From IMG/VR virus record IMGVR_UViG_3300047443_000138: DNA of 64,000 bases, one strand, 5' to 3'. Under the pieces are notes generated by a model, which saw only the letters and a program-made list of their open reading frames with translations, was not told where the DNA came from and searched no databases. Of this stretch, positions 1 to 33,047 are shown in pieces; the stretch's first letter is position 1; the number at the start of each line of letters is the position of its first letter. Both the position numbers and the translations under genes were made by a program. The DNA comes from an uncultured virus (IMG/VR IMGVR_UViG_3300047443_000138) (lineage: Duplodnaviria; Heunggongvirae; Uroviricota; Caudoviricetes).

Positions 1-286
1 CAACCAGGTGCAGCATTCCGGCGGCGGCCAGCTGGCAGCGGCACATCGCCATCTCGTCGCGGACGTACTCGCAGCCCTCATAGTCGCCACGCTCGGCCAG
101 CGCCCGATAGCGGGCCGACGCCCACCGATGACGGGCCAGAAGGTCAGCGACCTCCACGTTGATCGCAGTCACCGACGTGCCGTTGATGACCGTCGACTCG
201 CCGAAACGCAGGCCGGCAACCAGGTGCTCGATGCGGTGCTGCTCGGCGATCGCCGGGTCGACCGGGGTGGGGGTTGCGGTGCTCAT
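1..286 (-). CDS. Hypothetical phage protein (runs off window start)
   Basis: ATG at 286 overlaps the upstream stop (ATGA); open frame MSTATPTPVDPAIAEQHRIEHL... to the window edge; not in the ORF track. Confidence 0.65.
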   Translation of the reverse strand, partial: MSTATPTPVDPAIAEQHRIEHLVAGLRFGESTVINGTSVTAINVEVADLLARHRWASARYRALAERGDYEGCEYVRDEMAMCRCQLAAAGMLHLV

Positions 287-552
287 GCCGTCACCGCCTT
301 CCACCAGCGACGCTTCGCAGGCTTCACCGGCTCACGCAGCGCAAGCGCCTCGTAGTAGAAGGACTCGTGCAGGCGGCCCACAAACATCCAGAGCTCCTCG
401 GACGGCGCCTTCGCCGCCAGCTCCATCAGCTCCTCAGCCATCTCGCCGAACGTCCGGGCCAGCGTGGCGCGGTCACCGGACTCCAGAGCGGCAGCAAGAG
501 AAGCGAGATGGGCGGTGGGGGTCGGGGTGGGGGTTGCGGTGGTGCTGGACAT
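283..552 (-). CDS. Hypothetical protein
   Basis: MSSTTATPTP... start coupled (TGATG) to the upstream gene, GGAGG RBS. Confidence 0.7.
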   Translation of the reverse strand: MSSTTATPTPTPTAHLASLAAALESGDRATLARTFGEMAEELMELAAKAPSEELWMFVGRLHESFYYEALALREPVKPAKRRWWKAVTA

Positions 553-785
553 CAAGCCACCTCCGTGGACGACTGAGGGGTGTCCATCGAATTCAGGACG
601 GACTCGGGAATGCGGAGCGTGCCGGTGGCACCGTCTCCGGGCTGGTAGGGCTGGCCGTTCCTGTAGGCAGGAAGAAAGCCCTGGTGGATCCATCGATAGA
701 CAGTCGCGGGGTGCACTCGGAAGTGCGTCGCGACGTCCCGAACTCGCAGCATTGCGCCTCCGATCGCGGGTTTCGCATCTGTCAA
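552..785 (-). CDS. Excisionase-like helix-turn-helix protein (HTH_17/Xis family)
   Basis: LRVRDVATHFRVHPATVYRWIHQGFLPA..RIP pattern. Confidence 0.8.
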   Translation of the reverse strand: MTDAKPAIGGAMLRVRDVATHFRVHPATVYRWIHQGFLPAYRNGQPYQPGDGATGTLRIPESVLNSMDTPQSSTEVA

Positions 786-787
786 CG

Positions 788-879
788 ACCTTAAAGCCTT
801 GATGCATAACGTAGCAAGCCTCGCGGCGCAGTTTCGGCCAGTCGGGTGCAGGCATCTGTAATCATCAAGGGCTTAAGGT
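788..879. promoter_or_regulatory. Inverted 17-bp operator-like pair in a divergent promoter region
   Basis: ACCTTAAAGCCTTGATG (788-804) and CATCAAGGGCTTAAGGT (863-879), 15/17 inverted match, AT-rich against a GC-rich background. Confidence 0.6.
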
Positions 880-924
880 TGGGAGGTCAGAACGAGCACC
901 ATCAGTGGAGGAGAGGCCCGAGAG

Positions 925-1455
925 ATGGCCGAGAATCAGCGACGGAATGACTCGCTCGCCTACGTCACGCCTCGTGAACCGGGGCAAGCGGACGCCTGGA
1001 GCGAAGAAACGCGGCAGCGGGGAGGCCAGCAACTCACCAACGTCGCCGAGGTCGTACCGCCTCGCGAGGTCGCCACCGCCCTCTCTCTCGCAGCCGGCGA
1101 GAAGGCCGCAGTCCGCCGCCGGGTCATCCTGCTCGACGATGAAGCGATCGAACTCGCCGACTCCTACTACCCGCTCGAGATCGCGCGCGGCACGACACTC
1201 CTCGAGAAGAAGAAGATCAAGGGGGGCGCGCCCACGCTGCTGGCTGAGCTCGGCTACCGAGCCCGGCACGCCTCCGAGGATCTGGAGTTCCGGGAGGCGG
1301 ACGACTTCGAGCGCACCGCACTCTCCCTCCCCGAGGGCTCGAGCGTCCTGACGCTGCTACGCACCACCACAGCCGAAGACGGGAGCCCCATCGAAGTGCA
1401 GTTCATGGTCATGAAGGCGCCTCGCCGCCTCCACTACGAGATCGAGGTCGACTGA
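925..1455 (+). CDS. Stand-alone UTRA (HutC-type effector-binding) domain protein
   Basis: RRRVILLDDEAIELADSYYP...IKGG..LLAELG...RT...PIEV; paralogous to the UTRA part of the next gene; no HTH. Confidence 0.85.
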   Translation: MAENQRRNDSLAYVTPREPGQADAWSEETRQRGGQQLTNVAEVVPPREVATALSLAAGEKAAVRRRVILLDDEAIELADSYYPLEIARGTTLLEKKKIKGGAPTLLAELGYRARHASEDLEFREADDFERTALSLPEGSSVLTLLRTTTAEDGSPIEVQFMVMKAPRRLHYEIEVD

Positions 1456-1456
1456 C

Positions 1457-2221
1457 ATGCCGGAGCCGCACGAGGACAAGCGCCCCCTCGGTGAGCGCAT
1501 CGCCGCCGAGATCAGAAAGCTGATCATGTCGGGCGACTGGGAACCTGGAGCCCGGGTCCCCACAAACGAGAAGCTGAGGGAACAGTTCGAAACGTCGAAC
1601 GTGACCATTCAGCGCGCCCTCCAGATCCTCAAAGACGAAAGGTTCCTCGAGGGCCAGACTGGAGTCGGCGTCTTCGTGCGCAACGAAGGCTCCCAGGCGA
1701 TCAGCCCCGCACACAGCCTGCGCCCCTCCGAGCCGGGGCAGCCGTACCGGTGGCTGACCGAGGCCACGAAGAACCAGCAGCACGGCAAGTACAAGATGCT
1801 CGAGGTCGGCGAGGTGAAACCGCCGAAGCAAGTCCGCCTCGCTCTTGGTCTGGACGAGGACGGGACGGCGATGCGCCGGTCCCGCATCGGCTACCTCGAT
1901 GGCAAGCCAGCCGAACTGGTGCACTCGTACTACCCGATCGAGCTGGCGCGCGGGACGCGGCTCGAGGACCGGAGGCTCATCCCCGGCGGATCGCCGCTCC
2001 TGCTCGAGGAGATGGGCTACCCGACCCGCTCACAGGATGACGTGCTTGGCGCGCGACCGGCCACCACCGAGGAGTACGTACACCTCGAGATCCCGCGCGA
2101 TGTACCGGTGATCGAGATCTTCCGCGTCGTGTACAGCGACGAGCAGCGGCCGATCGAGGTCTCGCTGCTCACGAAGCCGGCGCACCGCTTCAAGATGGCG
2201 TACAGCGTCGACTGCCCCTGA
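1457..2221 (+). CDS. GntR-family (HutC/KorSA-like) regulator, wHTH plus UTRA
   Basis: IMSGDWEPGARVPT..L.EQFETS..TIQRAL..L...G.GVFV then a UTRA domain. Confidence 0.92.
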   Translation: MPEPHEDKRPLGERIAAEIRKLIMSGDWEPGARVPTNEKLREQFETSNVTIQRALQILKDERFLEGQTGVGVFVRNEGSQAISPAHSLRPSEPGQPYRWLTEATKNQQHGKYKMLEVGEVKPPKQVRLALGLDEDGTAMRRSRIGYLDGKPAELVHSYYPIELARGTRLEDRRLIPGGSPLLLEEMGYPTRSQDDVLGARPATTEEYVHLEIPRDVPVIEIFRVVYSDEQRPIEVSLLTKPAHRFKMAYSVDCP

Positions 2222-2238
2222 CTGTTTCCCACTTGCAC

Positions 2239-2266
2239 GCCCCCGGCCTCCGACCGGGGGCTTTTG
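2239..2266 (+). terminator. Intrinsic terminator
   Basis: GCCCCCGG...CCGGGGGC stem followed by TTTTG. Confidence 0.7.
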
Positions 2267-2360
2267 CATATACGGACACTTGGGCTTGATACCTGAATGA
2301 GCAAGCCTTACGGTTCTGTCCGTGAGAGTGGCCGACGCCACACGCTCAGTAAGGAGCGGC

Positions 2361-2918
2361 ATGCCCGCATCTTCCGAACGAACCGCGCTCTACCGCTACT
2401 TCGACGCCGACGACGAGCTGCTGTACATCGGCATCTCCATCGACCCAGACGGTCGACTGAAGGCCCACCGCGACAACCACGAGCCCTGGGTACCGGTGGC
2501 TGCACGTCGCACCATCGAGTGGCTCGACTCCCGACCGCTCGCCCTGAAGGCCGAGGAAGACGCGATTAAGACGGAGCGCCCGCGCTACAACGAGAAGCAC
2601 AACTACGACGACGCGACGTTCGATCCCGCCTCATGGTCCGAGGTCATCGACTTCCGCAAGGTGCCTGGGATCGCGGAACTGATGCGAGCCGAGATCGTCA
2701 GCGGGCGGTGGGCACCGGGTCAGCGCATCCCGTCGCTCCGCACCCTCGGGAAGGCGGCGGGAGCGAGTCCCCGAATCGTCAGCAAGGCCTCGGTCCAATT
2801 GCAAGACGAAGGCCTACTCGACTTCCAGCCTGGCCGCGGCCTCTTCGTCACCCGCCCGCGCTGGTCCGAGCCAAAGCTGCCGCACAACTTCTTCTGGGAG
2901 CTCGGCTTCCCCGGATAA
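2361..2918 (+). CDS. GIY-YIG nuclease domain fused to a C-terminal GntR-type wHTH
   Basis: ALYRY...LLYIGIS, R, E(AEEDAI) and N(PRYN) GIY-YIG residues; WAPGQRIPSLR..L...GRGLFV wHTH; AAGGAG RBS before ATG 2361. Confidence 0.8.
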   Translation: MPASSERTALYRYFDADDELLYIGISIDPDGRLKAHRDNHEPWVPVAARRTIEWLDSRPLALKAEEDAIKTERPRYNEKHNYDDATFDPASWSEVIDFRKVPGIAELMRAEIVSGRWAPGQRIPSLRTLGKAAGASPRIVSKASVQLQDEGLLDFQPGRGLFVTRPRWSEPKLPHNFFWELGFPG

Positions 2919-3012
2919 CGCGAACGGCCGGGTGCGCGAACACCCGGCCCGTTCAGCCAGCGAGCGCGAACTCGCTGACCTTCAACCATCACTCGCCTGA
3001 GAGAAGGTTTCG

Positions 3013-3474
3013 ATGACCACTGTAGTCCCCGAACAGGAAGTCGCGTCCGTGACGGACGCCACCACGTCCCGCACGTGGTCGTTCATCAATCGCCGCACCG
3101 GCGAGCCCGTGGCCTACGCCTGTATGCAGGGCTGCACGCTGAATCACGCGTCGGAGATGGCCTCGCCGACGTTCCCGGAGGACGTCTGGTGCTGGACGTG
3201 GCCGGAGGCGTTGACGCTGCCGGTCAACGAGAACGGTTCGCCTGAGGAGTTCCGCGTCCTCTCCACGGTGATCAAGGTGGAGCCGTGGTCTCCGAAGGTC
3301 GCCGAGCGGCTGCCGTTCGCCGTAATCGAGCTGGTCGACGATCACTTCGTCGACGGCCTCGACCCGGACGGGCTGGCGACGGTGATCCGCACCCTGTCTG
3401 ACCGGGTGGAGCGGATGCGGGAGACGCATGCCCGGCTCATTGCGGTCCGCGCCGAGTACATGGGCCGCTCGTGA
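3013..3474 (+). CDS. Actinophage hypothetical protein (DUF6907-like)
   Basis: C-x2-GC...H motif and LDPDGLA helix recalled for this family; coupled to the next gene. Confidence 0.55.
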   Translation: MTTVVPEQEVASVTDATTSRTWSFINRRTGEPVAYACMQGCTLNHASEMASPTFPEDVWCWTWPEALTLPVNENGSPEEFRVLSTVIKVEPWSPKVAERLPFAVIELVDDHFVDGLDPDGLATVIRTLSDRVERMRETHARLIAVRAEYMGRS

Positions 3475-4853
3475 TGGCGGGGTCCACGTTCTCGACGGCT
3501 TTGAAGACGGCGGCCGGCTATATCGACGTGGCGGCGAACGCTCACGGTGAAGAGAAGGCGCATCTCGCTGTCCGCGCGCTGGAGCGTATCCAGCACGACC
3601 GTCCGCGTCTGGTGGAGATTGGGCCGGGCGGCGGGTCCGCGGTCGCGTATCTGGCCTCGCATCTTGCTGCTGGTCGGGGCCGCGACGATGTCCGCCTGAC
3701 GCTGGTGGAGGTGCCGGGGGTGATTTCGGCGTCGCTGGAGCAGGCGATGAAGGACTTCAGCCAGGTCGGTGCTTGTGATCTGGTGTCGGGGTTCGCGCAG
3801 GACGTCGGGACGATCCTCGACGATCCGGTGGATGTGGTGAGCGCGTCGGCGCTGCTGCACGAGGTGTATTCCTACGGCGGCGGCTACAGCGGCCTGCATT
3901 CGATGATCCGGACTCTGCCGACGGTGCTGCGGCCGGGCGGAATGTTCGCCTACCGGGACGTGTACGCGGTGAAGGCGCCGTCGCTGCACGACCGGTGCAT
4001 GCAGACGTACACGTCCCGTTCGTGGCTGCGCTTTCTGCGGATGTTCATTCCGCAGTATCTGCAGGAGGGTACGCATCCGTACCACAGTGCCAGTGATCTG
4101 GTGGTTTTCCGGCAGGACTCGAGGGTCGTGCCGGCTGTGGACCTGTGTGAGCGGACGAGCGTGGTGGCTTCGGCGCCGGTGGGGGTGTTCCGGGAGATCC
4201 AGCGGCATTACGTGACGCTGAGGGATCATGTGTGGCGGTCGGGTGTTCTCGGGTTCAGGCCGTTCCTCGAGGGCCCGCTCGCGGGCGACTGGATCGATGC
4301 CCGGCATGGTCACAAGCGCGTGCACTATGTGCTGACGGACTCGGACTGGTTGCCGGATTCTCAGCGGGCGATGCTGCTCGCGCTGAGCGAGCCGTACACC
4401 GACCACTACACCGTGGACGGCGACATCCTCGACGAGTGCACGGACATCGCCCTGGGTGCGTTCTTCCGGCTGGCGGAGCGTGGCGACGGGGAGTGCTCGA
4501 CGGTGTGGCGGAGTTGGGCCTCCCGGGAGGGCCGCGAAACCTACGCGTATCTGACGCTGGATGCACTGCTGGCGGCGGTCGCGGTCAACTCGGCGGAGGT
4601 AGCACAGGATCAGCGGACGGTACTGGTGCCGGTCCGGGTGGAGGACGTGATCCGGCGCGATCGGGCCTACTACGACCGATATCTGCGGCGGGCCATCCCC
4701 AACCCGCTGCGGGACGGAAAACAACTCGTCCTCTTCACGAACGTCCCCGTGGAGGACACTCGCTCGTTGGCCGAGGGGACGCGGACCCTGCAGCAGTGGT
4801 GCAGCAAGACGAGCCTGGCGCGCGTGTACTCGGCGATCAACGGAGGAGCCTGA
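3471..4853 (+). CDS. Class I SAM-dependent methyltransferase with a large unknown C-terminal region
   Basis: Motif I LVEIGPGGG, acidic motif II LTLVE, DVVSASALLHE, LRPGG...RD. Confidence 0.8.
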   Translation: MMAGSTFSTALKTAAGYIDVAANAHGEEKAHLAVRALERIQHDRPRLVEIGPGGGSAVAYLASHLAAGRGRDDVRLTLVEVPGVISASLEQAMKDFSQVGACDLVSGFAQDVGTILDDPVDVVSASALLHEVYSYGGGYSGLHSMIRTLPTVLRPGGMFAYRDVYAVKAPSLHDRCMQTYTSRSWLRFLRMFIPQYLQEGTHPYHSASDLVVFRQDSRVVPAVDLCERTSVVASAPVGVFREIQRHYVTLRDHVWRSGVLGFRPFLEGPLAGDWIDARHGHKRVHYVLTDSDWLPDSQRAMLLALSEPYTDHYTVDGDILDECTDIALGAFFRLAERGDGECSTVWRSWASREGRETYAYLTLDALLAAVAVNSAEVAQDQRTVLVPVRVEDVIRRDRAYYDRYLRRAIPNPLRDGKQLVLFTNVPVEDTRSLAEGTRTLQQWCSKTSLARVYSAINGGA

Positions 4854-4854
4854 G

Positions 4855-5427
4855 ATGAACGACATGATCGAGGTTGAGCGGAAGCGGCGCCTGCCGGACG
4901 ACGGCTCCGGACTGGCCGTGCTGCTGGCCGGGCTCGGCTGGCAGGCTGCGGAGCGGGTGGTCGAGGTGGACACGTACTACTCGCGGCCGGACGTGGACTT
5001 CATGGAGACGGTCGAGTGTCTGCGGGTGCGGCGCCGCGGCGACTTCGCCGAGGTCACCTACAAGCCGGCCTCCACCGTGGCGACCCATAGCGCCGACGGC
5101 GTGATCTCGAAGCCGGAGACGAACGTCATTCTCCAGTCGGCAGGCCAGGCCCCGCTCGCGGACCAGTTGCTTGAGGCGATCGGCATGCAATTGCTCGTGC
5201 GGGTGGAGAAGAACCGAGCTGCGTACCGGCACCCGGACGAGCCGGACGTGACGGTGACCATCGACACGGTCGCCGGTGTCGCCACGTTCGTGGAGACAGA
5301 GGTCATGAGCGCTGACTCGATCGCGGCGGCCGAGACGGTCGAGCGGGTCGAGAAGGAGCTGGACATCACGGACTACCCGACGGTGGAGTTGCCGTACCGG
5401 GATCTCGCGATGGAGCGCGCGGTCTGA
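4855..5427 (+). CDS. CYTH/triphosphate tunnel metalloenzyme (class IV adenylate cyclase-like)
   Basis: EVERK (ExExK), DTYY, LRVR, TYK, VEKNR, FVETE, PY motifs; GGAGG RBS. Confidence 0.9.
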   Translation: MNDMIEVERKRRLPDDGSGLAVLLAGLGWQAAERVVEVDTYYSRPDVDFMETVECLRVRRRGDFAEVTYKPASTVATHSADGVISKPETNVILQSAGQAPLADQLLEAIGMQLLVRVEKNRAAYRHPDEPDVTVTIDTVAGVATFVETEVMSADSIAAAETVERVEKELDITDYPTVELPYRDLAMERAV

Positions 5428-5440
5428 CGACACGCTGCAG

Positions 5441-5471
5441 CGCCCCCGACTTCAGGACGGAGCCGGGGGCG
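5441..5471 (+). terminator. Stem-loop terminator after the CYTH gene
   Basis: CGCCCCCG...CGGGGGCG. Confidence 0.6.
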
Positions 5472-5631
5472 TCGTGCTGTCTAGACCGCCTCGTCGGCCG
5501 CTGCTGCTGCGCCTGGTGGACTGCCGTGGTGCTGTCGTCGCCTCGGGTGTCGCGCTGGGGCTGTAGTGCCTCGCGGGTCCCGTCTGGTTGGCGCCGTGTC
5601 GCCTCGCCTGGTCGACCCGCACGCTCGGTGT

Positions 5632-6027
5632 ATGGGGGTCATCGAGGAGGGGCCGCGGCGGATCGGCGCCGGGCAGACGTTCACGTGCCCGTTGTGCGGG
5701 TTACCGCAGGATCGGGTGCCGACACTGGACCACGACTGGGTGCTGCTCGAGCCGGGCGTGGACGTGCTGGCGCATCTGGTACCGGCGGAACACCGGTGGA
5801 TCGTGCTGTCGGACGGCCGGGTCACGGTGTACGGGGTGTGCCCGCCGGTCGCCGAGCAGCGCTGCCGGGTCGAGCACCGGCTGGCGTGCCCGGGGCAGGA
5901 GCTGCCGGACTTGTGGCCTTGGTTGACGACGTTGCGGGGCGAGAACAGAAGGTCCTCGGAGCGCCGGGATGACGGGGATCAGCCGCCGGAGCCGGAGCCG
6001 GACATCGAGCTGCCGGACGTCGGGTAG
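5632..6027 (+). CDS. Zn-binding hypothetical protein (DUF6083-like)
   Basis: CPLCG...WVLLEP...VP..HRW...CRVEH.LACP. Confidence 0.65.
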   Translation: MGVIEEGPRRIGAGQTFTCPLCGLPQDRVPTLDHDWVLLEPGVDVLAHLVPAEHRWIVLSDGRVTVYGVCPPVAEQRCRVEHRLACPGQELPDLWPWLTTLRGENRRSSERRDDGDQPPEPEPDIELPDVG

Positions 6028-6395
6028 GCGGTCCGAGCGCAACACGACGCCCCCGTCGGATCCCGGCCGGGGGCGTTCCTGTGTCACGCCTGCTGCTCGC
6101 CGCCTTTCACGACATGCCCCATTTGGCCGCATTTTGGTGTCGGCCCGCGCGGTGCGGCGTTAACCGTGCATGAGCAGGAGTCGCAGGTTGCGGGATCTGT
6201 CAGGGCCTCAGGCGTTCGACCAGCTGCGTTCGCAGTTGGCTCGCGCCGCTGCCGGGGTGGCCAGGGAGAAAGTGCCACGGCAGAGGCCTCGTCCGACGCC
6301 CGCGGAGCCGGATGGCGTCCGCGGTGAGGCGGGCCCGCCACGTTCGAGCTGAGGTCAACGCTCCCCCGCCTGATCAGCGCGGCGCGGGTGGCGAG

Positions 6396-6599
6396 CTACT
6401 CCTCCGACTCCTCACCGGCTTCCCGCAGGTGGTGGTCGGCGAAGAAGATCGCGATCTCCAGCCCGGCCGCGATCCCGTTGTGCGCGGTGACGCGGAGGTG
6501 GTCGAGGTCGGGTCGGGGATGCTGGTCGGCGGCCACGGCTTTGGCGTGTTCGGCGGCGAGTTGGCCGCGGAGACGGCGGAGGCGGGCGAGGTCGTTCAT
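6396..6599 (-). CDS. Hypothetical protein
   Basis: ATGA coupling with the upstream gene, GAGGAG RBS. Confidence 0.65.
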   Translation of the reverse strand: MNDLARLRRLRGQLAAEHAKAVAADQHPRPDLDHLRVTAHNGIAAGLEIAIFFADHHLREAGEESEE

Positions 6600-6796
6600 G
6601 CGGCTGTCTCCTCGGTGAGGTTGCGTCCCAGGGCCATGTCGATGAGGTCCGCCGCCGGTCGGAGGGGCGACGGACGGCCGTCGGGAGCGTTCGCGGTCCG
6701 CAGGATGTCGGCGGCCCGTTGGACTCGCTCCAGCTGCCCGTACAGGGCGTCGAGTTGGTCGTCGGTGATCGTGGATGCGGTGGGCCGGTCAAGCAT
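6596..6796 (-). CDS. Hypothetical protein (TITDDQLDALY motif)
   Basis: AAGGAG RBS before ATG 6796; the frame is open upstream to 7135, so the start is uncertain. Confidence 0.6.
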   Translation of the reverse strand: MLDRPTASTITDDQLDALYGQLERVQRAADILRTANAPDGRPSPLRPAADLIDMALGRNLTEETAA

Positions 6797-7131
6797 GTTG
6801 ATCTCCTTTCGGGTTGGCGGGGCGGGGCTGGGGCTCTGAGTGCCGCTCTGCGCGTCTCGGCGGGCTCCGGTGCGCAGCGGCGAGTTAGGCCGCGAGAGAG
6901 GCGCCCAGGGCCCTTCTCGGGCGCCCTCGGCCCCATCCGGACCCTGCCGAAGCGCCGTGCGGCCATCTGAGCGCTTCTGGCCGCGTCTCACCGCCCGTCG
7001 TGCCGCCCGGTTCGCGGACGGCTCCGGCTGGCCGTCGGGCACGTACTGCTCGCCCGTCGACCGCAGCTCCGTCTCCCAGCCGGCGCCCGGCGTTCCAGCG
7101 CGCTCGCCGCGGGGCGCCGACGACGGCCCGC

Positions 7132-7335
7132 TCACGCCTGCCTCCGCACTTCGCGCCGTCCGCCGGCCCCGCGTTTGATCCGCCCGCCGGCGTCGAGGTG
7201 GCCGTCGGCGGTGGCGAGCATCCGCACCGCGCGGGCCAGGACGGCGGCGGGAGGCTCGCCCGGATAGCAGCGGCGCAGCGTCTCCGCCGTCGGCAGGTCC
7301 AGGCAGACCAGCGGCAGCGGGCGGGCCGGGCTCAT
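7132..7335 (-). CDS. Hypothetical protein
   Basis: MSPARPLPLV..., ATGA coupling. Confidence 0.55.
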   Translation of the reverse strand: MSPARPLPLVCLDLPTAETLRRCYPGEPPAAVLARAVRMLATADGHLDAGGRIKRGAGGRREVRRQA

Positions 7336-7652
7336 CGCTGACCGCCGTTCAGTGCGCGGGCCACTGCGAGAGCGCGGACGAGGTGCGTCGGGTGCGCCGG
7401 ACCGGCTGACACGTACTCGGCAGCAACACGCAGCCACGCCGCAATCTCGCGGGTCGCCTCGGGCGAGAAGAGTCCGGCGAGTTTCCCGGCCGGACCGCCG
7501 AGCGCGTTCTCGACGCCGTTGGCGTACCAGCGGGGCCGGTTGACGATCTGCGAGTGCCAGTAGTCGTTGGCCTCGATCTCCTCGGCCGTCTCGTCGGCGA
7601 GGTCGAGGAGTGTCTGCGCCGCGGCGCGGAGTTCATCAGCGGGTGCGGTCAT
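7332..7652 (-). CDS. Hypothetical protein
   Basis: MTAPADELRAAA..., AAGG RBS. Confidence 0.7.
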   Translation of the reverse strand: MTAPADELRAAAQTLLDLADETAEEIEANDYWHSQIVNRPRWYANGVENALGGPAGKLAGLFSPEATREIAAWLRVAAEYVSAGPAHPTHLVRALAVARALNGGQR

Positions 7653-7711
7653 CGGTGGTGCCTTTCGGTGCGGGGTGCCGCCCCCACGACGCAGGGGCGG
7701 CAGGGGTGGGG

Positions 7712-8077
7712 TCAGGCGGTGGGCGCGGTCTTCGTGGCGGCCCAGTGCCAGCCCATGCGGGCGCGGTGCTTGCCGTCGTGTCCGGCGGGCAACTGGCAGG
7801 CGCGCGGCTGGTACTGCGACGGCACGAGGTTCGGCGGGCCGCCGACCGAACCGCACTCGGGTTCGCCGGGGTTGGCGAAGTCCTTGAACCAGTCGAGGTG
7901 CAGGAGCGTGCTGGCGTCGTCCCGGTAGCAGATGTGGATCACGCAGCTGCCGCAGAACTCGCACTCGGCGCACTCGTCGAGCAGCCACGGGTCGACCTGC
8001 AAACCGAAATGCGCGAGGTAACGCTCGTTGACGCAGGGGCTGCCGTAACGGCCCCAGGTCGTCTGGTCGTCGCTCAC
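7712..8077 (-). CDS. Cys-rich hypothetical protein
   Basis: GTGA coupling; CxxCxxC and C-x6-H motifs. Confidence 0.6.
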   Translation of the reverse strand: MSDDQTTWGRYGSPCVNERYLAHFGLQVDPWLLDECAECEFCGSCVIHICYRDDASTLLHLDWFKDFANPGEPECGSVGGPPNLVPSQYQPRACQLPAGHDGKHRARMGWHWAATKTAPTA

Positions 8078-9688: not shown

Positions 9689-10786
9689 TCACGCGGCTTC
9701 GGTCGGGAACGCGTCGTGGGTACGGCCGTCCAGCTCGCGGCCGGCCTTGGCCTTGCCGACGCGGGCGAGTTCGACCCGGTGGCCGAGTTCGTCGACGGGA
9801 TCGCCGGCGAGGAGCGTGCCCTTGCTAGTGCCGCCGATGACGAGGTAGCCGGTCGGCGCGTACTCGCCGAACTGCTTGAAGAAGAACGGGACGTTGGCTG
9901 CATCGCACTGGTCGCGGAGGCTGGTCGCCCACTGGGGTGCCATGGGACGGGCGCCGCGGCCGGACTCGCCTCCGACGATCACCCAGCCGATCGGCTGGCC
10001 ATTCGGTCGCCCGTTGCCGGTGTGGCTGCCGGTCCAGTGGCCTTCGCGCCCGCAGTCGGGGCAGTGCTGCTCGAGCGGTCCGGCGTAGAAGCGGCGGCAG
10101 TCCGGTCCTTGGCAGCGCCAGGCGGCGTGTCCGCCCGGCATCCACGCGGTGAGGTCGACGGGCCCGAGGAGCGGCTCGCAGGACAGGAAGCGGACGGCGG
10201 CCGGGGTGTCGACGAGGGCGGGGATGCGGAGGTCTGCCCGCTTCTGGTCCTCGACCGAGACGCCCATCCAGACGTTGGGCAGGGGCCAGGCGGCGTTCCA
10301 GACCTGCTGTTCGGCGTCCTCGGGGACGCCGGGGATCCGGTCCGGGTTGGCCTTGGACACGGCCCAGGCCATGGCGGATCGGAAGTGGACGCCGGGAACG
10401 TGGCCGTTGCCGCAGGTGCACAGGTCGTTGAGCAGGGACCGCATCCGGCCGTGCCGCTTGGTCAGCACCTGGTAGGTGTGCTGCGGCGTCAACGCCATGA
10501 TCGCGAAGGTGCGGGCGATGTACTCGTCGGGGATGTCCTTGTGGAACAGGTCGGACATCGAGTTGACGAAGACGCGCTTCGGCTTCCGCCAGCGCAGCGG
10601 CAGCGTCAGCCGCTCGGGGCGGAGGGTGACGTCGAAGCCGGTCTCGAAGTGGTGGCCGGGGATGCCGCGCCACCTTTCGGCGAACGTCTCGGCGTAGCAG
10701 TTGTCGCAGCCGGGCGAAACCTTCTCGCATCCGGTGACGACGTTCCAGGTCGCGTCGGTCCATTCAATCTTGCTGGTGGTGGCCAT
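9689..10786 (-). CDS. DUF5131 / phage Gp37-Gp68 family protein
   Basis: SKIEWTDATWN..TGC.KVSPGC.NCYAE, FVNSMSDLFH, LTKR, SCEPLLG, WVIVGGESG, FFFKQ. Confidence 0.92.
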   Translation of the reverse strand: MATTSKIEWTDATWNVVTGCEKVSPGCDNCYAETFAERWRGIPGHHFETGFDVTLRPERLTLPLRWRKPKRVFVNSMSDLFHKDIPDEYIARTFAIMALTPQHTYQVLTKRHGRMRSLLNDLCTCGNGHVPGVHFRSAMAWAVSKANPDRIPGVPEDAEQQVWNAAWPLPNVWMGVSVEDQKRADLRIPALVDTPAAVRFLSCEPLLGPVDLTAWMPGGHAAWRCQGPDCRRFYAGPLEQHCPDCGREGHWTGSHTGNGRPNGQPIGWVIVGGESGRGARPMAPQWATSLRDQCDAANVPFFFKQFGEYAPTGYLVIGGTSKGTLLAGDPVDELGHRVELARVGKAKAGRELDGRTHDAFPTEAA

Positions 10787-11037
10787 CAGGCGACCTCTCC
10801 TTCGTGGTTGTGGTGCGAGGTTGGCGGGCAGTCGTTGCACGGCGGGGGTGTCGGCCCGGACGGGGCGGTACCGCAGGGCCAGGCGCCCTTGCGCGGGATG
10901 TGGTAGCCGGGCGGCTCTTCCTCGACTGCCGCCTCGGGCTCGGGTATTGGCTTGCCGGTGAGGTGCGCGAAGAGGGCGGCGAGGGTCCCCTCTTCGCGCA
11001 CCGCGGCCAGGTCCCCGGCCTTGAAGTGGCCGGTCAA
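10786..11037 (-). CDS. Hypothetical protein
   Basis: TTG start overlaps the dnaB stop; ends coupled to DUF5131. Confidence 0.55.
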   Translation of the reverse strand: MTGHFKAGDLAAVREEGTLAALFAHLTGKPIPEPEAAVEEEPPGYHIPRKGAWPCGTAPSGPTPPPCNDCPPTSHHNHEGEVA

Positions 11038-14349: not shown

Positions 14350-14941
14350 AGCGCACATGGGCCCACCCGTGGCCATTGGCGAGTCGGGTGATCAATGTGC
14401 GGCTCACGCCGTACTCGCCAGCGAGGACTCGGTGCAGGTCGCCAGCCGCAGCACGGGCCCGTATCTCCGCGACCTGCGACTCGGTCAACTTGCTCGTCCC
14501 GCTCCGGCTCCCGCGCGCCTGGCGTTCCCGGCTGACCATGTCGGCCGCGTTGTCGGCGTTTGTGCCGACGGAAAGGTGTGCGGGGTTCACGCACGGCGGG
14601 TTGTCGCAAGAGTGCCTGATCAGCATTCCCTCGACGTCTACGCCGGCGAGCATCAGCGACACGCGATGCGCCTTGACCGTGGGCCCCGAGCTCTTGCCCT
14701 CGGGGCGCATCACGCCGTAGCCGTGCTCGTTCGTGGCTTTGGTCCACGGCCAGCAGTCATCGGGGCCTCGGCGGTCGACCTTGTCCCAGAAGCGGTCTGC
14801 GAGCGTCTTCTTCGGCGGGTCGTCAGTGGTGCCAGTGCGCTTCATCCGCTGGTCGTGCGTATCGCACAGACCGTTCCGGCGATGCGGGCGACCGCAGCTC
14901 TCTACGGAGCACGGGCCGCCCGAGCCTCGGACCCCCCTCAC
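14348..14941 (-). CDS. Free-standing HNH homing endonuclease
   Basis: RFWDKV..CWPW...GYG...AHRVS...RHSCDNPPCVNPAHL..GT.ADN; C-terminal SKLTE..V.EIR HTH. Confidence 0.92.
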   Translation of the reverse strand: MRGVRGSGGPCSVESCGRPHRRNGLCDTHDQRMKRTGTTDDPPKKTLADRFWDKVDRRGPDDCWPWTKATNEHGYGVMRPEGKSSGPTVKAHRVSLMLAGVDVEGMLIRHSCDNPPCVNPAHLSVGTNADNAADMVSRERQARGSRSGTSKLTESQVAEIRARAAAGDLHRVLAGEYGVSRTLITRLANGHGWAHVR

Positions 14942-17724
14942 GCCGCCACCGCCAGGTCCGGCTGCGAGTGGCGTTCCATCTCTTCGCCGGTGATTGCTTC
15001 AACGAGCGCACAGACGATGATCTCTGCGGCAGGCGGGGTAACAGCGTTCCCATATTGGCGGACGCGCTCCCGCTTGGACCCGAGGACGATGTACTGGTCG
15101 GCGAAGCTCATGGCCCGGCCGATCTCGTGGGGCTCGAGCATCCGGAACAAGACGTCGTCGATGTCCACGTCGCCCTGGACGAGGGCGTACCGGTCGCGGG
15201 TGGAGAGCGTGCCGACGGGTTCGCGGACCGTCTTCGCCGTCCCGTTGCCGTAGTACGGCACGAGCAGGTGCTCCCACGTCACGAGCGACTGGTGGCCGGC
15301 CGTGGTCATGGTGCGGAAGTACTCGGCAGCGGTCGTGCAGTGCTCTCCGCCGTCGCCGGTGCTTCCGTTGTTCCGCATCACGAACGCCGGGACGTTCGGG
15401 GTGACGAGGCCGTGGTGGTTGCCGTTTGCGGACACGGTGCCGAGCGCCTCGTGGATGGAGCGTCCGCGGAGCTGGTCGCCGCCGCCGCGCATGGTCACCA
15501 TGAACGGAAGCCAGGCGAGCCCGGTCTCGTTCCGTGCGGTCTGGGTGCGGAGCGGGGCGTGCGCGGAGGCGGGTTCCTTGCCGTCGCGTCCTTCGACCGG
15601 GATCAGGAGGGGCGGGACGGCGAGCCCGTCGTTCTCCCTGGTGGTGCGGGTGGCCATGGGGTCGGTGACCGGGGTGGCGTCGTTGCGCCATGTTCCGCCC
15701 GCGGGGACCATCATCGGCCGGGCGAACTTGTCGAGGCCGGCCTGGATGCGGGCGAGGGTTTTGTCGGCGAGCGGCTTCGTCCGGTCCCCGATGCGCTGCC
15801 CGGCGATCGTCCAGTCGATGGCGACGGCGGCGGGCAGTGTCTCGGGTTCGACGATCTGGTTGCGGCAGGCCACGTTCGGGCACCTGTAAACGTATTGCTG
15901 GCGGTAGCGGCCCATGTCGCGTCCGGGCTGCTTGAACCGCTGCACAGCCTGCACCCACGTGTCGCAGCCCGTGCACCAGGCGCGTGGCCGCAACCACTTG
16001 TCCCAGTCCGGCGTCCGGCCCAACGACTTGTGCCAGTACGCCACGTACAGGCGATCCCGGCTCTGCGGCGCCTTGTGTACGGTCCGTGGGTCCGCATGCA
16101 TCGAGTTCAGGGCGATGACGCGGGTCTCGTACCCGAGCTTCCGGATCTCGCCGATCCAGCGGTCCCACTGGTCCCAGGCCCGCACGTCGACGACGTTCTC
16201 GACGACGCCCGCCTTGACGAGGCCGCCCCGCTGCTGAACGCCACGCAGGTACATGGGGACTTCCTCCATCAGCGCGCGGGAGCGTTCGACTTCCTCGGAC
16301 GGGCCGAACCCGTCAAACAGGTCGCCCTGGAGGGAGGCGTCGAAGTCACGCTTCTTGCCGCGGGCGTTGGACCACTGCGGGCATTCCGGGGAGGCCCAGA
16401 AGATGTCGGTGACGGGCCACTTGTCGACGGGCGCTTCGCGGATGTCGCCGCGGTAGTGGTCGACCTCCGGGAAGTTCGCGGCGTGCGACTCGATCGCCCG
16501 CTCCCAGTGATTCGCCGCCCGCTCCATCCGGACGCCGGGGATCGAGTGCATGCCCTGGGAGGAGCCGCCCGCACCGCAGTTCCCCGTCCAGTGCACCAGG
16601 CCGTTGCGACGGCACAGCCAAGTGCCGTGCTCGACGGTGGGGCACCACACGATGCCGCTGTAGGTGGTCCACTCGGCGACCGCCTGGCGGAGCGGCTTGG
16701 CGGTGACCCTCTCCAGGAGCGACACCCGCCACATCGGGTAGGCCGCGCCCTTGTGTTGCATCTCCCACCGGTGGATCGATGTCGCCCGCCCGGCGAGGAT
16801 GGCAGCGAACTGGAATCCTTCGGCCCGGTCCTGCCTGTTTTGCGAGAGGGACGAGTCCCTCGCGCCGTTCCGCACGCGGGTAGTCCCGTCGGCGAGCATC
16901 GACGCTTCCACGAGCAAGTCGAGCTGATCAGCTGTGAGCGTCAGCAGCCAGGCCGGATCCAGGACATGGTCCGGTGCGGCGGCGACGATGGGGGCTGCGG
17001 CTGCGACGTTGAGGCGCCAGTACCTGGTCCCCTCATAGTCGGCGACGTTCCAGGCCGGCTGTCCGGCCCGGCGTCCGGTCCGCCCCATGGGCGACCCGTA
17101 GAGCGCAGTCAGCGCCTGCTCGATCCGCTCGCACTTCCCGGGGTTCACCGACGGCGACTGCGAGAGGTGGATCCCGCCGTTCGCCCGGTAGCTTCCCTCG
17201 GTCCACGCCCATCCGACGAGCTCGACGAGCGCGTCATCGTGGCTGCGGTTCTCCGGGTACGCGAAGGGGGCACTGCGGACGACCGACGAATCCACGGTGA
17301 GCTGGTCGGAAGTACGGATCTGCCAATCGAGCCGACGCCCAGAGGGAGTAGCGACTCGCTGCTGGACTGGCCAGCGGTGGCCGACTGTCACCAGTGCCGA
17401 GAGGGCCTTGCCCTCGACCTTCAGCATCTTCTCGTCGGTCAGGTCGAAGATATTCATCTTCTGGACCGGCACCCAGCGCGCCACTCCGTCGTCTGTGCTG
17501 AGACTGGCGACCAGGTCTCCGACCGCGACCTGGTCGTAGCGCCGCCATCCACGGGCCGTAAGGATCTCGGTCTCCGTGTCCGCGCAGAACCAGTCCATGA
17601 CGGTGAGGTCGCCGTCCGTGGTCCATCCAGCGGCCCGTCGACGGTCTTCGGCTTGCCGAAGGAACTCCTCCGCCTGCCGCGGGGACATGTCGTACAGGTG
17701 GGGCACGTTGCCGTTGCGGTCCAT
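14938..17724 (-). CDS. DNA (cytosine-5) methyltransferase, intein-containing
   Basis: Motif I DWF|CGAGG after intein removal, motif IV SPEC, ENV, QSRDR, GNAV. Confidence 0.92.
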   Translation of the reverse strand: MDRNGNVPHLYDMSPRQAEEFLRQAEDRRRAAGWTTDGDLTVMDWFCADTETEILTARGWRRYDQVAVGDLVASLSTDDGVARWVPVQKMNIFDLTDEKMLKVEGKALSALVTVGHRWPVQQRVATPSGRRLDWQIRTSDQLTVDSSVVRSAPFAYPENRSHDDALVELVGWAWTEGSYRANGGIHLSQSPSVNPGKCERIEQALTALYGSPMGRTGRRAGQPAWNVADYEGTRYWRLNVAAAAPIVAAAPDHVLDPAWLLTLTADQLDLLVEASMLADGTTRVRNGARDSSLSQNRQDRAEGFQFAAILAGRATSIHRWEMQHKGAAYPMWRVSLLERVTAKPLRQAVAEWTTYSGIVWCPTVEHGTWLCRRNGLVHWTGNCGAGGSSQGMHSIPGVRMERAANHWERAIESHAANFPEVDHYRGDIREAPVDKWPVTDIFWASPECPQWSNARGKKRDFDASLQGDLFDGFGPSEEVERSRALMEEVPMYLRGVQQRGGLVKAGVVENVVDVRAWDQWDRWIGEIRKLGYETRVIALNSMHADPRTVHKAPQSRDRLYVAYWHKSLGRTPDWDKWLRPRAWCTGCDTWVQAVQRFKQPGRDMGRYRQQYVYRCPNVACRNQIVEPETLPAAVAIDWTIAGQRIGDRTKPLADKTLARIQAGLDKFARPMMVPAGGTWRNDATPVTDPMATRTTRENDGLAVPPLLIPVEGRDGKEPASAHAPLRTQTARNETGLAWLPFMVTMRGGGDQLRGRSIHEALGTVSANGNHHGLVTPNVPAFVMRNNGSTGDGGEHCTTAAEYFRTMTTAGHQSLVTWEHLLVPYYGNGTAKTVREPVGTLSTRDRYALVQGDVDIDDVLFRMLEPHEIGRAMSFADQYIVLGSKRERVRQYGNAVTPPAAEIIVCALVEAITGEEMERHSQPDLAVAA
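16579..17586 (-). mobile_element. Intein (336 aa) with LAGLIDADG-like core
   Basis: Starts CADTETEILTARGW, block B VTVGHRW, LVGWAWTEG and LADG motifs, ends VWCPTV...WTGN followed by extein Cys. Confidence 0.92.
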
Positions 17725-18832: not shown

Positions 18833-18945
18833 GTCCGCCTCCAGGGCTTGCTGCACAGCCAGCCGATGAGGACTCCGAGCCCGCTGGAGGCGACGACGGC
18901 GACGGGCAGCCAGCCGAGGTTCGCGTGGTTGAGGAAGTCGTTCAT
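18829..18945 (-). CDS. 38-aa membrane peptide
   Basis: MNDFLNHANLGWLPVAVVASSGLGVLIGWLCSKPWRRT; coupled at both ends; GGAGG RBS; not in the ORF track. Confidence 0.6.
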   Translation of the reverse strand: MNDFLNHANLGWLPVAVVASSGLGVLIGWLCSKPWRRT

Positions 18946-19955
18946 GACGCCTCCCCGAGCCCGTCGAAGGCCAGCTGCTCTTCACGTGGAGCAGGCAGTT
19001 CGACGACGTCGGCCTGCCGTGCTTCGGCAACCTTCGGCGTCGGCTTGGCGAGGGAGGCAGCGACCGCGTCGAACTCCCTCAACGCGTTTCGGAGACTGGC
19101 CCGGATCTCGTTGGCGATGGTCAGAGGGTCTTGGAGTTGCTTCTCCGTCTCCTCCGGCACGTCCCGTGCGGGCCAGACGGTCAGCTTCGCGTCGGCAAGC
19201 CTGGTGGCGGGGATGGTGACGATGACGGTGGGTACGTCTGTGCCGGACTCGCGGAACGCCCCCTCGGTGACCGCTTCGACGGTCCCGCCACGTGCTTCGA
19301 CGAGCGCACGGAATTGCGCGGTCTTGTTCGTCTGGCAGGTGACGGCCCACGACATCACCGACACGAGCAGCCCGTCCGGCTTGAGGAATCGCAGCGCGTG
19401 CTCGACGTGGGCGATGTCGGCGCCTTTGGTGAAGGGCGGGTTCATGAGGACCCGGTCGTACCGGGCCTCTGTGGGCGCGGTGAGGAAGTCGGCGACCTGC
19501 ACGGTTCGCGCGACGCCCGTGTCTGCGAGTACGGCGGCGTACCCGGGGTCACGCTCGATGCAGTCGACGACCGCACCGCTGGCAGCGGCAGTCGTGGCGA
19601 TGGCGCCGGAACCGGCCGACGGTTCGAGGGCTTCCATCCCGGGCTGAAGGTCGGCAAGTTCGATGAGTCGCTCGACGACGGCGGCCGGGGTGGGGAAGTA
19701 CTGGGCCTGCTGCCGCTTCTCCCGCAACGTCACCACCTGTCCGGTCTCCAGGACGGGGGCGATCGCCTCGGCGGCGTCGACGGGGAACACGTGCGCCTGG
19801 ACGCTGGTGGTCCAGCGGCCTCCGACGGCTTCGAGGACTTCGTTGACGAGTTGGTACAGCTTGGGGTCCATGCGCGGGCCGGTGAGGACGAGGCGGTTGC
19901 CGTCGATCTCGGGCCGCTCTGTCAGCACGGCGAGGATGTCGTCGGTGAGCTTCAC
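18942..19955 (-). CDS. N6-adenine DNA methyltransferase-like protein
   Basis: QYFPTP, LEPSAGSG, MNPPF. Confidence 0.88.
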   Translation of the reverse strand: MKLTDDILAVLTERPEIDGNRLVLTGPRMDPKLYQLVNEVLEAVGGRWTTSVQAHVFPVDAAEAIAPVLETGQVVTLREKRQQAQYFPTPAAVVERLIELADLQPGMEALEPSAGSGAIATTAAASGAVVDCIERDPGYAAVLADTGVARTVQVADFLTAPTEARYDRVLMNPPFTKGADIAHVEHALRFLKPDGLLVSVMSWAVTCQTNKTAQFRALVEARGGTVEAVTEGAFRESGTDVPTVIVTIPATRLADAKLTVWPARDVPEETEKQLQDPLTIANEIRASLRNALREFDAVAASLAKPTPKVAEARQADVVELPAPREEQLAFDGLGEAS

Positions 19956-20359
19956 GCTGCCCTCCGCGTCTGGGTGCGGGCGGCCCGTCGTGCGGCACGC
20001 TCCTCGCGGCGGCGGGCGGCGACCATCTCCCGCATGGCGGCGGGGACGCCGATCCACACGTGGACGAGGGACTGGTGGGCGCGCTGGCTGCCGCCGAAGC
20101 CGTGGTGCCGGATGATTCCCGCGTCCTGCAGTCGGGCCGGAAGCGATCCCCATTGGCTGGCCGGGCGGGGCGGGTCGGGCAGCTGCTTGCGGGCGGCGAC
20201 GTCTGCGATCGTGAACGGCTCGCGGGAGTCGGCGGCCTCGACGAACGCGTCCCACACCTCGGTGACCCAGGCCTCGAAGTCGTCGACTATCCGGCGGGAG
20301 ACGGACGGGGCCGCGGCGGCGAGCTCGGAGCCGTCGAACGCGGGTGCGGTGTGGCTCAT
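19952..20359 (-). CDS. Hypothetical protein
   Basis: MSHTAPAF..., AAGGAG RBS, coupled. Confidence 0.65.
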   Translation of the reverse strand: MSHTAPAFDGSELAAAAPSVSRRIVDDFEAWVTEVWDAFVEAADSREPFTIADVAARKQLPDPPRPASQWGSLPARLQDAGIIRHHGFGGSQRAHQSLVHVWIGVPAAMREMVAARRREERAARRAARTQTRRAA

Positions 20360-32674: not shown

Positions 32675-32792
32675 GCCCCCGGGCCGTTGTCGGCGGCCGC
32701 GGGGGTCTTTGTTACTCCGTTGACCGTACTACCCCCTGCTAGCCCCGTGGGTAGCTATGGCAGGTCACGGGTGGCGGACTAGCGTCCGAAGC

Positions 32793-33047
32793 GTGATCAT
32801 CGACAGGGAGGGGCCCGTTCCCCCGTACCGGCAGATCGCCGACGACCTACGACGACAGATCGAAGACGGGGCGATCCCGCCGGGTCGGCGCATCCCGTCG
32901 ATGGTCGAGCTCGAAGCGACCTACGGCGTCGCCCGCGACACCCTCCGCAAGGCGACCAAAGTCCTCAAGGACGAAGGGCTCGTCGAGACAGTCACCGGCA
33001 TGGGGATCTACGTAGTTCACCCGGCGCCGCCCGCGACAGAGGGCTGA
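32793..33047 (+). CDS. GntR wHTH-only regulator
   Basis: PPYRQIADDLRRQI..G.IPPG.RIPS..EL...YGVAR.T.RKA...L..EGLV....G.G.YV. Confidence 0.88.
   Translation: MIIDREGPVPPYRQIADDLRRQIEDGAIPPGRRIPSMVELEATYGVARDTLRKATKVLKDEGLVETVTGMGIYVVHPAPPATEG

Follow-up and report, generated by a model that had tools for sequence, protein, structure and literature searches.

Closest described systems and the locus under study

The pre-replicative hydroxymethyl-dC pathway of phage T4 consists of a dCTPase (gp56), a dCMP hydroxymethylase (gp42), and a dNMP kinase (gp1). Eukaryotic and viral mRNA capping joins an RNA triphosphatase of the Cet1-type triphosphate tunnel metalloenzymes (TTMs) to a guanylyltransferase and a cap methyltransferase. 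Here, we describe a gene pair that shares features with both systems: a putative class I S-adenosylmethionine (SAM)-dependent methyltransferase (MT) and a TTM of the CYTH superfamily, encoded one after the other in a 64,000-nucleotide stretch of DNA (hereafter, the window) from an uncultured virus of the Caudoviricetes (IMG/VR record IMGVR_UViG_3300047443_000138). An initial annotation of the window had joined these two genes with a preceding DUF6907 gene into a three-gene phage operon. We found that MT and CYTH form a real, strongly conserved, and undescribed enzyme pair, and that the cassette in the window consists of two genes plus a passenger rather than a three-gene unit. We found no paper on a pairing of CYTH and methyltransferase, and the literature searched contains no description of such a system, in agreement with the initial annotation.

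Like mRNA capping, the pair combines a tunnel triphosphatase with a class I SAM methyltransferase in what would be one pathway. In contrast to capping, no guanylyltransferase is present here, the CYTH protein falls into the small CyaB/thiamine triphosphatase-like branch and not the Cet1 branch, and the MT shows no specific likeness to cap methyltransferases. The T4 combination of a nucleoside triphosphate (NTP)-cleaving enzyme, a base-modifying enzyme, and a nucleoside monophosphate (NMP) kinase resembles the sets of CYTH or NUDIX, MT, and kinase genes found near distant relatives of the pair. Here, however, the modifier is SAM-dependent and of another fold, the NTPase is a tunnel enzyme, and no kinase is encoded in the window. 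The complete T4-like trio is absent, with kinases fused or adjacent in distant relatives only; furthermore, the pair is mainly cellular, and no evidence ties it to DNA. TTMs of the SaTTM/PH1819 type share with the CYTH protein of the window the full tunnel set (ExExK, RxR, K, E, and ExE) as well as its size and architecture (~190 aa, single domain), but none has been reported with a dedicated methyltransferase partner. A term search of Vogt et al. (2021, PMC8233210) finds the word "methyltransferase" only in the reference list.

Conservation of the MT–CYTH pair

A scan of one genome per species yielded 102 confirmed places, of which 79 distinct genome loci were kept (84 loci including the viral ones). 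The CYTH gene lies directly downstream of the MT gene on the same strand, a few to ~140 bases away, in 75 of the 79 genome loci. It is 1–2.3 kb away in two others, one with a helix-turn-helix (HTH) gene between the two (L047) and one from Saccharibacteria with the order CYTH, a 167-aa gene, MT, and a P-loop protein gene (L074). The sequence of L055 ends 150 nt past the MT gene, and L021, from the same species as the viral locus L082, is the only locus lacking a CYTH gene within 6 kb. Among the viral loci, the pair is present in three of the four with a full-length MT, the match in L084 covering only 38 residues. A check of co-occurrence had been suggested in the initial annotation, and its outcome supports MT and CYTH as a real functional pair and conserved module.

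This does not extend to the DUF6907 gene, which had been counted as a member of the module. A homologue stands beside the pair in only one of the 84 loci, the sister phage contig L080, and DUF6907 is a lineage-specific passenger. The most widely shared neighbor family other than CYTH is the short-chain dehydrogenases/reductases (SDRs), found in 11 of the 84 loci. Divergent HTH regulators of several kinds are frequent upstream of the actinobacterial pairs, and genes for NUDIX (six loci), YpsA/SLOG (five), and HAD (three) proteins recur in their vicinity. Four loci were considered as possible MT–CYTH fusions and rejected as deletion products. L008, L049, and L079 contain apparent in-frame fusions, and in L064 the two proteins are encoded in separate, overlapping frames; all four lack either the ExExK end of CYTH or part of the MT and are not of the Rosetta-stone kind. 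A complex prediction for MT and CYTH (score 0.00, mark 0.32) weighs neither way.

Type of the CYTH protein

The CYTH protein matches Pfam PF01928 over residues 4–170 with 87.6 bits (cut-off 23.2). Its N-terminus, MNDMIEVERK, contains the intact ExExK motif noted in the initial annotation (EVERK, positions 6–10), and the protein also has LRVRR, with both arginines of RxR, and ETE, with both glutamates of ExE. Nine residues (E6, E8, K10, R57, R59, K70, E88, E147, and E149) do not vary among 24 MT-linked sequences.

The initial annotation proposed a two-enzyme pathway that makes or destroys a methylated or cyclic nucleotide, with conjectural roles in signaling, superinfection defense, or RNA-end modification among others. 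According to Vogt et al. (2021, PMC8233210), class IV adenylate cyclases are distinguished from tunnel triphosphatases by an HF motif four residues before ExExK, by the loss of the first arginine of RxR, and by ExA in place of ExE. All three signatures fail in the CYTH protein of the window. The same holds in the 12 MT-linked CYTH proteins aligned, distant ones included, as all 12 retain ExEx(K/R), RxR, and ExE, and none has the upstream HF. The closest solved relatives in profile searches are PH1819 (1e-21) and SaTTM, a characterized triphosphatase (2e-21), whereas solved class IV cyclases are weak matches (5e-9) restricted to query positions 92–167. By these published motif rules, the protein is thus predicted to be a triphosphatase and not a class IV adenylate cyclase.

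Cyclic-nucleotide signaling, in which CYTH would act as a class IV cyclase and MT would modify the cyclic product or its target, could draw on these weak matches and on the NCBIfam class IV cyclase model TIGR00318, which scores 57.2 bits, just under its cut-off of 57.95. CyaB, the enzyme behind this model, belongs to the same superfamily and has a similar size. However, the CYTH protein of the window differs from CyaB in lacking HF and in keeping both the gate-keeper arginine and the second glutamate of ExE, and we regard a cyclase as highly improbable. The cyclic branch of the proposed pathway is therefore not upheld, and it is the nucleotide-directed role as such that is best supported, because distant relatives of the MT are fused to or located beside nucleotide kinases and NUDIX proteins.

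The methyltransferase and its insertion

Pfam recognizes the MT only weakly. Methyltransf_12 matches residues 48–159 with E 1.6e-3 and 19.6 bits (cut-off 30), and Methyltransf_11 also remains below its cut-off (17.2 vs. 21.2 bits); several distant relatives exceed the gathering score of a Pfam methyltransferase model. Motif I reads GPGGG (residues 51–55). A regular-expression scan found no [DNS]PP[YFWH], PC, or ENV motif of DNA methyltransferases, in line with the absence of a DNA methyltransferase motif noted in the initial annotation. Invariant in 28 sequences are GPGGG, E80, HE130–131, YRD161–163, QRH244–246, and REGxExYxY, and E80 is probably the acidic residue at the end of strand 2, judging from a modeled strand at 74–80.

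An AlphaFold2 model built from 28 sequences (pLDDT 82, pTM 0.80) was compared with solved structures. All 46 PDB chains listed by Foldseek (~25 entries, E 1e-6 to 1.4e-5) have a SAM fold, mostly that of class I methyltransferases, the exceptions being three spermidine synthase entries and the RdmB hydroxylase. VIA-align 2 retrieved class I methyltransferases of every substrate class at tied Z-scores of 12–14.8, such as OxaG (Z 14.8, root-mean-square deviation (rmsd) 5.0, 219 residues aligned) and toxoflavin N1-methyltransferase (Z 14.1, rmsd 2.8, 191 aligned). The protein is accordingly modeled as a class I SAM-dependent methyltransferase with a Rossmann-like seven-strand fold. It also looks active, as predicted from the fold and the invariant GPGGG and E80.

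The initial annotation described ~270 aa of unrecognized C-terminal sequence. This sequence indeed has no solved match, but it appears to be mostly an insertion inside the methyltransferase fold and not a separate C-terminal domain, as the structural alignments run from about residue 13 to 426 while spanning only ~160–250 residues, and the last long strand of the model is at 416–426. Residues ~181–415 (~235 residues) are thus best placed as an insertion between late strands of the Rossmann fold. When folded alone, the insertion has a pLDDT of 80.7. Compared with 48,161 solved chains, it reaches a best Z of 4.7, with no chain at Z ≥5. The MT profile has no match below E 0.06 among the sequences of solved structures, and in the ESM Atlas the MT matches only its own cluster and generic methyltransferase clusters. 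A Rossmann core with a large extra domain is shared with SABATH-type small-molecule methyltransferases (SAMT 1m6e, xanthosine methyltransferase 2eg5, and the mycobacterial fatty-acid O-methyltransferase 5f2k), which give the longest structural alignments to the MT (239–253 residues, Z 13.0–13.4), although with high rmsd (5.4–6.2 Å) and only 6–10% identity.

Thirteen residues are invariant in relatives down to ~20% identity (G51, G53, H130, E131, Y135, G157, R162, H246, E353, E356, Y358, Y360, and R398). They comprise the SAM loop and a charged and aromatic set, half of them within the insertion. Such residues would fit a polar, possibly phosphorylated acceptor, and with its many invariant Arg, His, Tyr, and Glu residues, the insertion is the probable site of the acceptor pocket.

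The acceptor might also be a phosphorylated small molecule other than a nucleotide, such as thiamine triphosphate, inorganic tri- or polyphosphate, or an isoprenoid or sugar phosphate. The pair would then belong to an accessory metabolic or natural-product pathway, and the phage copy would be a chance passenger. Many of the fold matches are small-molecule and natural-product methyltransferases, such as OxaG, toxoflavin N1-methyltransferase, and SAMT (Z 13.4), and actinobacterial neighbors of the pair include SDR, major facilitator superfamily (MFS), AMP-binding, and CoA-transferase genes. Thiamine and inorganic triphosphatases are, moreover, known CYTH enzymes (PMC8233210). The same source also gives an aromatic residue as the thiamine triphosphatase signature (W/YxRxR), which the CYTH protein of the window lacks, having Cys55 in its place (CLRVR). 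CYTH is, furthermore, the only conserved neighbor of the MT, and the fusions of the relatives are to nucleotide kinases and NUDIX. An Rfam search (riboswitches included, E 0.1) found nothing in window positions 1–8000 and no more than a tRNA in a set of 11 loci, and thus no riboswitch in either. Weighing both sides, we consider this alternative unlikely.

Distant relatives and a proposed nucleotide-directed role

An exhaustive profile search with the MT returned 221 representatives at E 1e-3 or better, of which 32 were scanned for domains. Seven of these 32, with lengths of ~685–760 aa, have a C-terminal P-loop nucleotide-kinase-like domain (AAA_17, AAA_18, AAA_33, or CoaE), and one kinase-fused relative is named Candidatus Peregrinibacteria. 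A NUDIX domain is found in one relative and a GreA/GreB C-terminal domain in another (P0197). A further candidate, L086, was discarded as an unrelated O-methyltransferase fusion outside the MT family.

A metagenome scan gave 73 loci, and we examined the 17 in which the match covers most of the protein or extends well past the generic methyltransferase core; the other 56 were dropped as short contigs or matches to the generic core only. Among the 17, two repeat loci already in the genome set (L115 equals L076, and L128 is close to L055). CYTH is next to or near the MT in eight of the 17. A nucleotide kinase is encoded in 11 (five thymidylate-kinase-like, three of a 245-aa P-loop family that also occurs in L074, one fused, one deoxynucleoside kinase (dNK), and one adenylate kinase (ADK)), a Gre-like protein in 10, and a NUDIX protein in two. 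Low-GC contigs, partly of Patescibacteria, contain clusters of Gre-like, thymidylate-kinase-like, CYTH, and MT genes. The Gre-like protein is clustered with the thymidylate-kinase-like or the 245-aa P-loop protein, CYTH, and the MT family in L099, L100, L101, L104, L106, L112, L119, L120, L121, and L128. The thymidylate-kinase-like profile matches solved thymidylate kinases (1.4e-10), and the Gre-like profile matches Gfh1, GreA, and GreB along the entire length (5e-15 to 3e-10). Where the tip of the coiled coil would lie, the Gre-like protein has WHDN, which is unusual and invariant. The Pfam scores of both proteins are far below those expected of housekeeping genes, the expectation being general knowledge and not a measured value. 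Together with the fusions, these low scores speak for a dedicated system over genes that adjoin by chance.

In locus L123, ADK, an MT relative, and NUDIX are encoded in a row. The same locus contains a gene for a mitochondrial-carrier-family protein (positions 5037–5876, minus strand; PF00153, E 2e-27), which bacteria seldom encode and which may point to an organism or virus associated with eukaryotes.

With moderate confidence, evenly balanced between belief and doubt, we interpret the MT–CYTH pair as a minimal module for nucleotide tailoring that the phage carries as cargo. A nucleoside phosphate would be methylated by the MT. The tunnel enzyme would dephosphorylate the substrate or the product in its triphosphate form, thereby either feeding the MT or controlling how much methylated triphosphate is present. 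For the step performed by dedicated kinases in the fuller versions of small-genome bacteria, the module would depend on kinases of the host. The data show the anatomy of the genes, the conservation of the pair, the enzyme classes, and the fusions and neighborhoods of the relatives. We infer which substrate is used (a nucleotide), in what order the steps occur, and how phage or lysogen would benefit, be it by nucleotide-pool manipulation, defense, or DNA or RNA modification.

Several observations speak against the interpretation. The fold does not point to an acceptor, as no solved homologue indicates one and the matches are tied across substrate classes. There is no kinase in the window or in the actinobacterial loci, and the case for a nucleotide rests on relatives of 20–45% identity. 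In the small genomes, the order of housekeeping genes might account for part of the Gre-like and thymidylate-kinase-like neighbors, an explanation that the fusions speak against. Characterized tunnel triphosphatases release the gamma phosphate, converting NTP to the diphosphate, and do not perform a T4-like NTP-to-NMP step. Many actinobacterial neighbors are regulators, SDRs, MFS transporters, and CoA enzymes, which would fit non-nucleotide small-molecule metabolism. Finally, in a scan with PADLOC-DB 2.0 (2023 library), the MT matched only mad2 (E 0.0054, 13.6 bits), and CYTH and DUF6907 had no match.

The Gre-like neighbors also bear on RNA. The CYTH protein could be an RNA triphosphatase acting on 5'-triphosphorylated RNA whose end the MT then methylates, in a cap-like manner or on the phosphate, with effects on how stable phage or host transcripts are or how they are recognized. 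Some NUDIX enzymes decap RNA, and Gre-family RNA polymerase factors accompany MT relatives in the 10 metagenome loci and in the fusion P0197. Yet the kinases associated with the MT relatives are similar to NMP kinases (thymidylate kinase, ADK, dNK, and CoaE-like) rather than to polynucleotide kinases, the cassette encodes neither guanylyltransferase nor ligase, and the CYTH protein is closest to the small-molecule triphosphatases PH1819 and SaTTM, with no RNA triphosphatase among 15 matches. Thus, despite the inclusion of Cet1-type RNA triphosphatases in the CYTH superfamily (PMC8233210), RNA 5'-end modification seems an improbable explanation, on a par with the small-molecule one.

The Gre link nevertheless leaves room for a tie to transcription, be it by way of RNA 5' ends or of modified nucleotides with an initiating or regulatory role. 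In a more speculative version, which we think has a slim chance of being correct, the product of the pair would be a nucleoside polyphosphate bearing a methyl group, which would target RNA polymerase via the secondary channel as a new alarmone-like regulator or a transcription-poisoning antiviral nucleotide. A dedicated Gre-family factor of small-genome bacteria would deliver the methylated nucleotide or rescue the cell's own polymerase, and a phage with the minimal pair would reprogram host transcription or exclude rival phages.

Distribution and mobility

The MT has at least 236 relatives, and among the 120 matches listed they are near full length (425–489 aa) with 56–100% identity. Their hosts are Streptomyces, Kitasatospora, Nocardia, Nocardiopsis, Actinoplanes, Saccharopolyspora, and others, and nearly all are named "hypothetical". 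Within genera, the pair is patchy. For the genus of G002, which contains the Streptomyces triticisoli locus L001, it was found in three of 301 sampled genomes; for that of G003, which has a Nocardia sp. locus, the count is 33 of 151, with six of the 33 partial or split. The MT gene is frameshifted, truncated, or interrupted in nine of the 79 genome loci, some perhaps through assembly errors. The pair is thus accessory and decaying. In Nocardia niwae (L046, 7219–8480), ~1.2 kb of inserted DNA, possibly an insertion element, splits the MT at residue 408, with residues 408–457 beyond it and an intact CYTH gene downstream.

Among 401 sampled Patescibacteria genomes, 13 match the MT at E 1e-10, G004 over its full length, G611 partly, and the others in the generic methyltransferase core. 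Only one of 72,556 plasmid records has a match (52% identity). Neither the MT, CYTH, and DUF6907 proteins nor the cassette DNA had a match in 50,697 GenBank phage records, a collection that may lack records close to the window. The structural region of the window had no match in it either. PHROGs likewise gave no match for any of the three cassette genes. A phage-specific system is not supported, the pair being mainly chromosomal in actinobacteria. This spread and the lack of matching phage records suggest that the phage copy is best seen as cargo from actinobacterial hosts. The pair probably moves horizontally among actinobacteria.

Cassette architecture and phage context

The window, from an actinobacterial phage, represents a temperate siphophage-like genome, as judged from 41 scanned proteins. 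It encodes a large terminase, portal, major head protein, tape measure, holin, integrase, RecT/RecE, and a DnaB-like helicase (Table 1), confirming that the operon belongs to a phage. Two IMG/VR contigs have the same MT–CYTH pair beside a related DnaB-like gene, L080 (MT 91% identical, with DUF6907 and DUF6083 also present) and L081 (MT 83% identical), which places the cassette inside phage genomes and not in a host flank. The nearest virus record among those searched, G001, does not contain the cassette. No tRNA genes and no terminal or att-like repeats of note were found in the window. In sequencing data, 24 DNA runs had a match, every one labeled rhizosphere metagenome, and no RNA run was among those listed.

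Table 1. Positions of the cassette and of further features in the window.
Feature	Position	Strand	Remarks
UTRA-only gene	925–1455	+	Pfam
GntR+UTRA gene	1457–2221	+	Pfam
GIY-YIG + GntR HTH gene	2322–2918	+	Pfam
GC-rich hairpin between the GIY-YIG/GntR gene and the operon	2920–2957	+	Fold of 2916–2975: dG -32.4 kcal/mol, z -3.7, 0/200 shuffles as stable
DUF6907 protein, 153 aa, first gene of the operon	3013–3474	+	PF21848, E 1.5e-16
Putative class I SAM-dependent methyltransferase (MT), 460 aa	3471–4853	+	Start GTG 3471 or ATG 3474
CYTH/triphosphate tunnel metalloenzyme, 190 aa, predicted triphosphatase type	4855–5427	+	PF01928, E 1.1e-24
GC-rich hairpin after the CYTH stop	5429–5481	+	dG -32.7 kcal/mol, z -3.6, 0/200 shuffles fold as well
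DUF6083 protein	5566–6027	+	Pfam, E 2.2e-27; CPLCG-type motif
Very stable hairpin after the DUF6083 gene	6026–6105		dG -48.9, z -4.1
Early block: anti-repressor-like, RecE/RecT, two DNA-methyltransferase-like proteins, HNH endonuclease, DnaB-like helicase	28–7 kb	-	
DUF5131 protein, early region	9689–10840	-	E 6e-100
Large DNA-methyltransferase-like proteins, 928 and 437 aa, early region	14938–17724, 18942–20255	-	
Integrase	29707–31116		
GntR HTH protein, 96 aa, lysogeny region	32757–33047	+	
Structural block: large terminase, portal, major head protein, tape measure, tail genes, holin	64–38 kb	-	
486-aa protein, N-terminal 2H phosphoesterase and C-terminal SPP1 gp7-type minor capsid domain	57004–58461	-	

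The tight packing of the three cassette genes was confirmed at their annotated positions by the open reading frames, Pfam, third-position GC, and junctions. Third-position GC is 0.90 for DUF6907, 0.84 for MT, and 0.92 for CYTH, at a local DNA GC of ~0.66–0.68, which indicates that all three are coding and not chance frames. GAGAAGG precedes the DUF6907 ATG, and the DUF6907 stop codon (TGA, 3472–3474) overlaps the MT start (GTGATG, 3471–3476). The MT stop codon (TGA, 4851–4853) is separated by a single base from the CYTH ATG, which has GGAGGAG 7–13 nt upstream. With such junctions, the genes are translationally coupled.

The initial annotation had placed a terminator behind the operon. A stable, GC-rich hairpin does follow the CYTH gene and is probably a factor-independent terminator of the Streptomyces type without a U-tract, and a similar hairpin ahead of the operon is likely the terminator of the upstream unit. 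However, neither hairpin has a T-tract, and a consensus terminator scan calls neither of them.

The cassette sits past the end of the minus-strand early block and faces it, and its orientation opposite to the early operon, as annotated, was borne out by replication and recombination genes on the minus strand at 7–28 kb. Flanked by the two hairpins and encoded on the other strand than the early genes, it forms a unit of its own beside GntR-type regulators. Three GntR-related genes lie upstream, and their products are possible regulators of the cassette. A GntR/UTRA gene adjoins the pair in 10 of the 84 loci (nine genome loci and L081), and relatives of the GIY-YIG/GntR protein are encoded upstream of the MT in L014 and L081. 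With the protein of the lysogeny region, the phage has four GntR-related proteins, namely the UTRA-only protein, the GntR+UTRA protein, the unusual GIY-YIG and GntR HTH fusion, and this fourth one. Downstream of the cassette, the DUF6083 gene forms a small unit of its own and is common to the sister contig L080 only.

Another alternative concerns modification of the phage's own DNA. A methylated deoxynucleotide made by the pair before replication and built into phage DNA would allow escape from restriction, following the T4 pattern. The logic of an NTPase, a base modifier, and an NMP kinase is mirrored by the CYTH/NUDIX, MT, and kinase sets of the relatives. The nearest statement in the literature, from Iyer et al. 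(2021, PMC7824862), is the proposal that jumbo-phage CYTH triphosphatases might degrade unmodified nucleotides. In the window, however, the cassette points away from the replication genes, is set apart by hairpins, and has no kinase, and the phage already encodes two DNA methyltransferase-like proteins. The pair is, moreover, mostly chromosomal in non-phage surroundings, with neither of its proteins matched in the GenBank phage records. Orientation, hairpin insulation, and chromosomal distribution thus argue against a role in phage DNA synthesis, and we rate this explanation as distinctly unlikely, below those involving RNA ends or small molecules.

Apart from the cassette, the DUF5131 protein and the two large DNA-methyltransferase-like proteins of the early region suggest a heavy investment of the phage in DNA modification. 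In the structural block, the tape measure gene holds a 126-nt unit twice in tandem with 75% identity (47430–47687, minus strand). The N-terminus of the 486-aa protein matches 2_5_RNA_ligase2 (E 1e-11), LigT, TIGR02258 (2e-8), and, weakly, Acb1 (E 5.8e-4), and its C-terminus matches TIGR01641 (3e-5). From these domain matches, it could be a virion-delivered phosphodiesterase that destroys cyclic-oligonucleotide defense signals on entry.

Implications for MT–CYTH biology

The MT family comprises several hundred proteins but has no curated model and no solved relative, and its conserved insertion of ~235 residues matches no known fold. The CYTH tunnel-triphosphatase family, for its part, lacks a clear physiological role, and identifying the product of the pair would give this CYTH branch a function. 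The links to kinases, NUDIX, and Gre-family proteins by fusion and neighborhood mark out an undescribed nucleotide-centered system, of which the two-gene form of actinobacteria and phage should be easy to express and assay. If our interpretation as a nucleotide-tailoring module is true, the MT product could be a new modified nucleotide relevant to phage–host conflict or transcription control.

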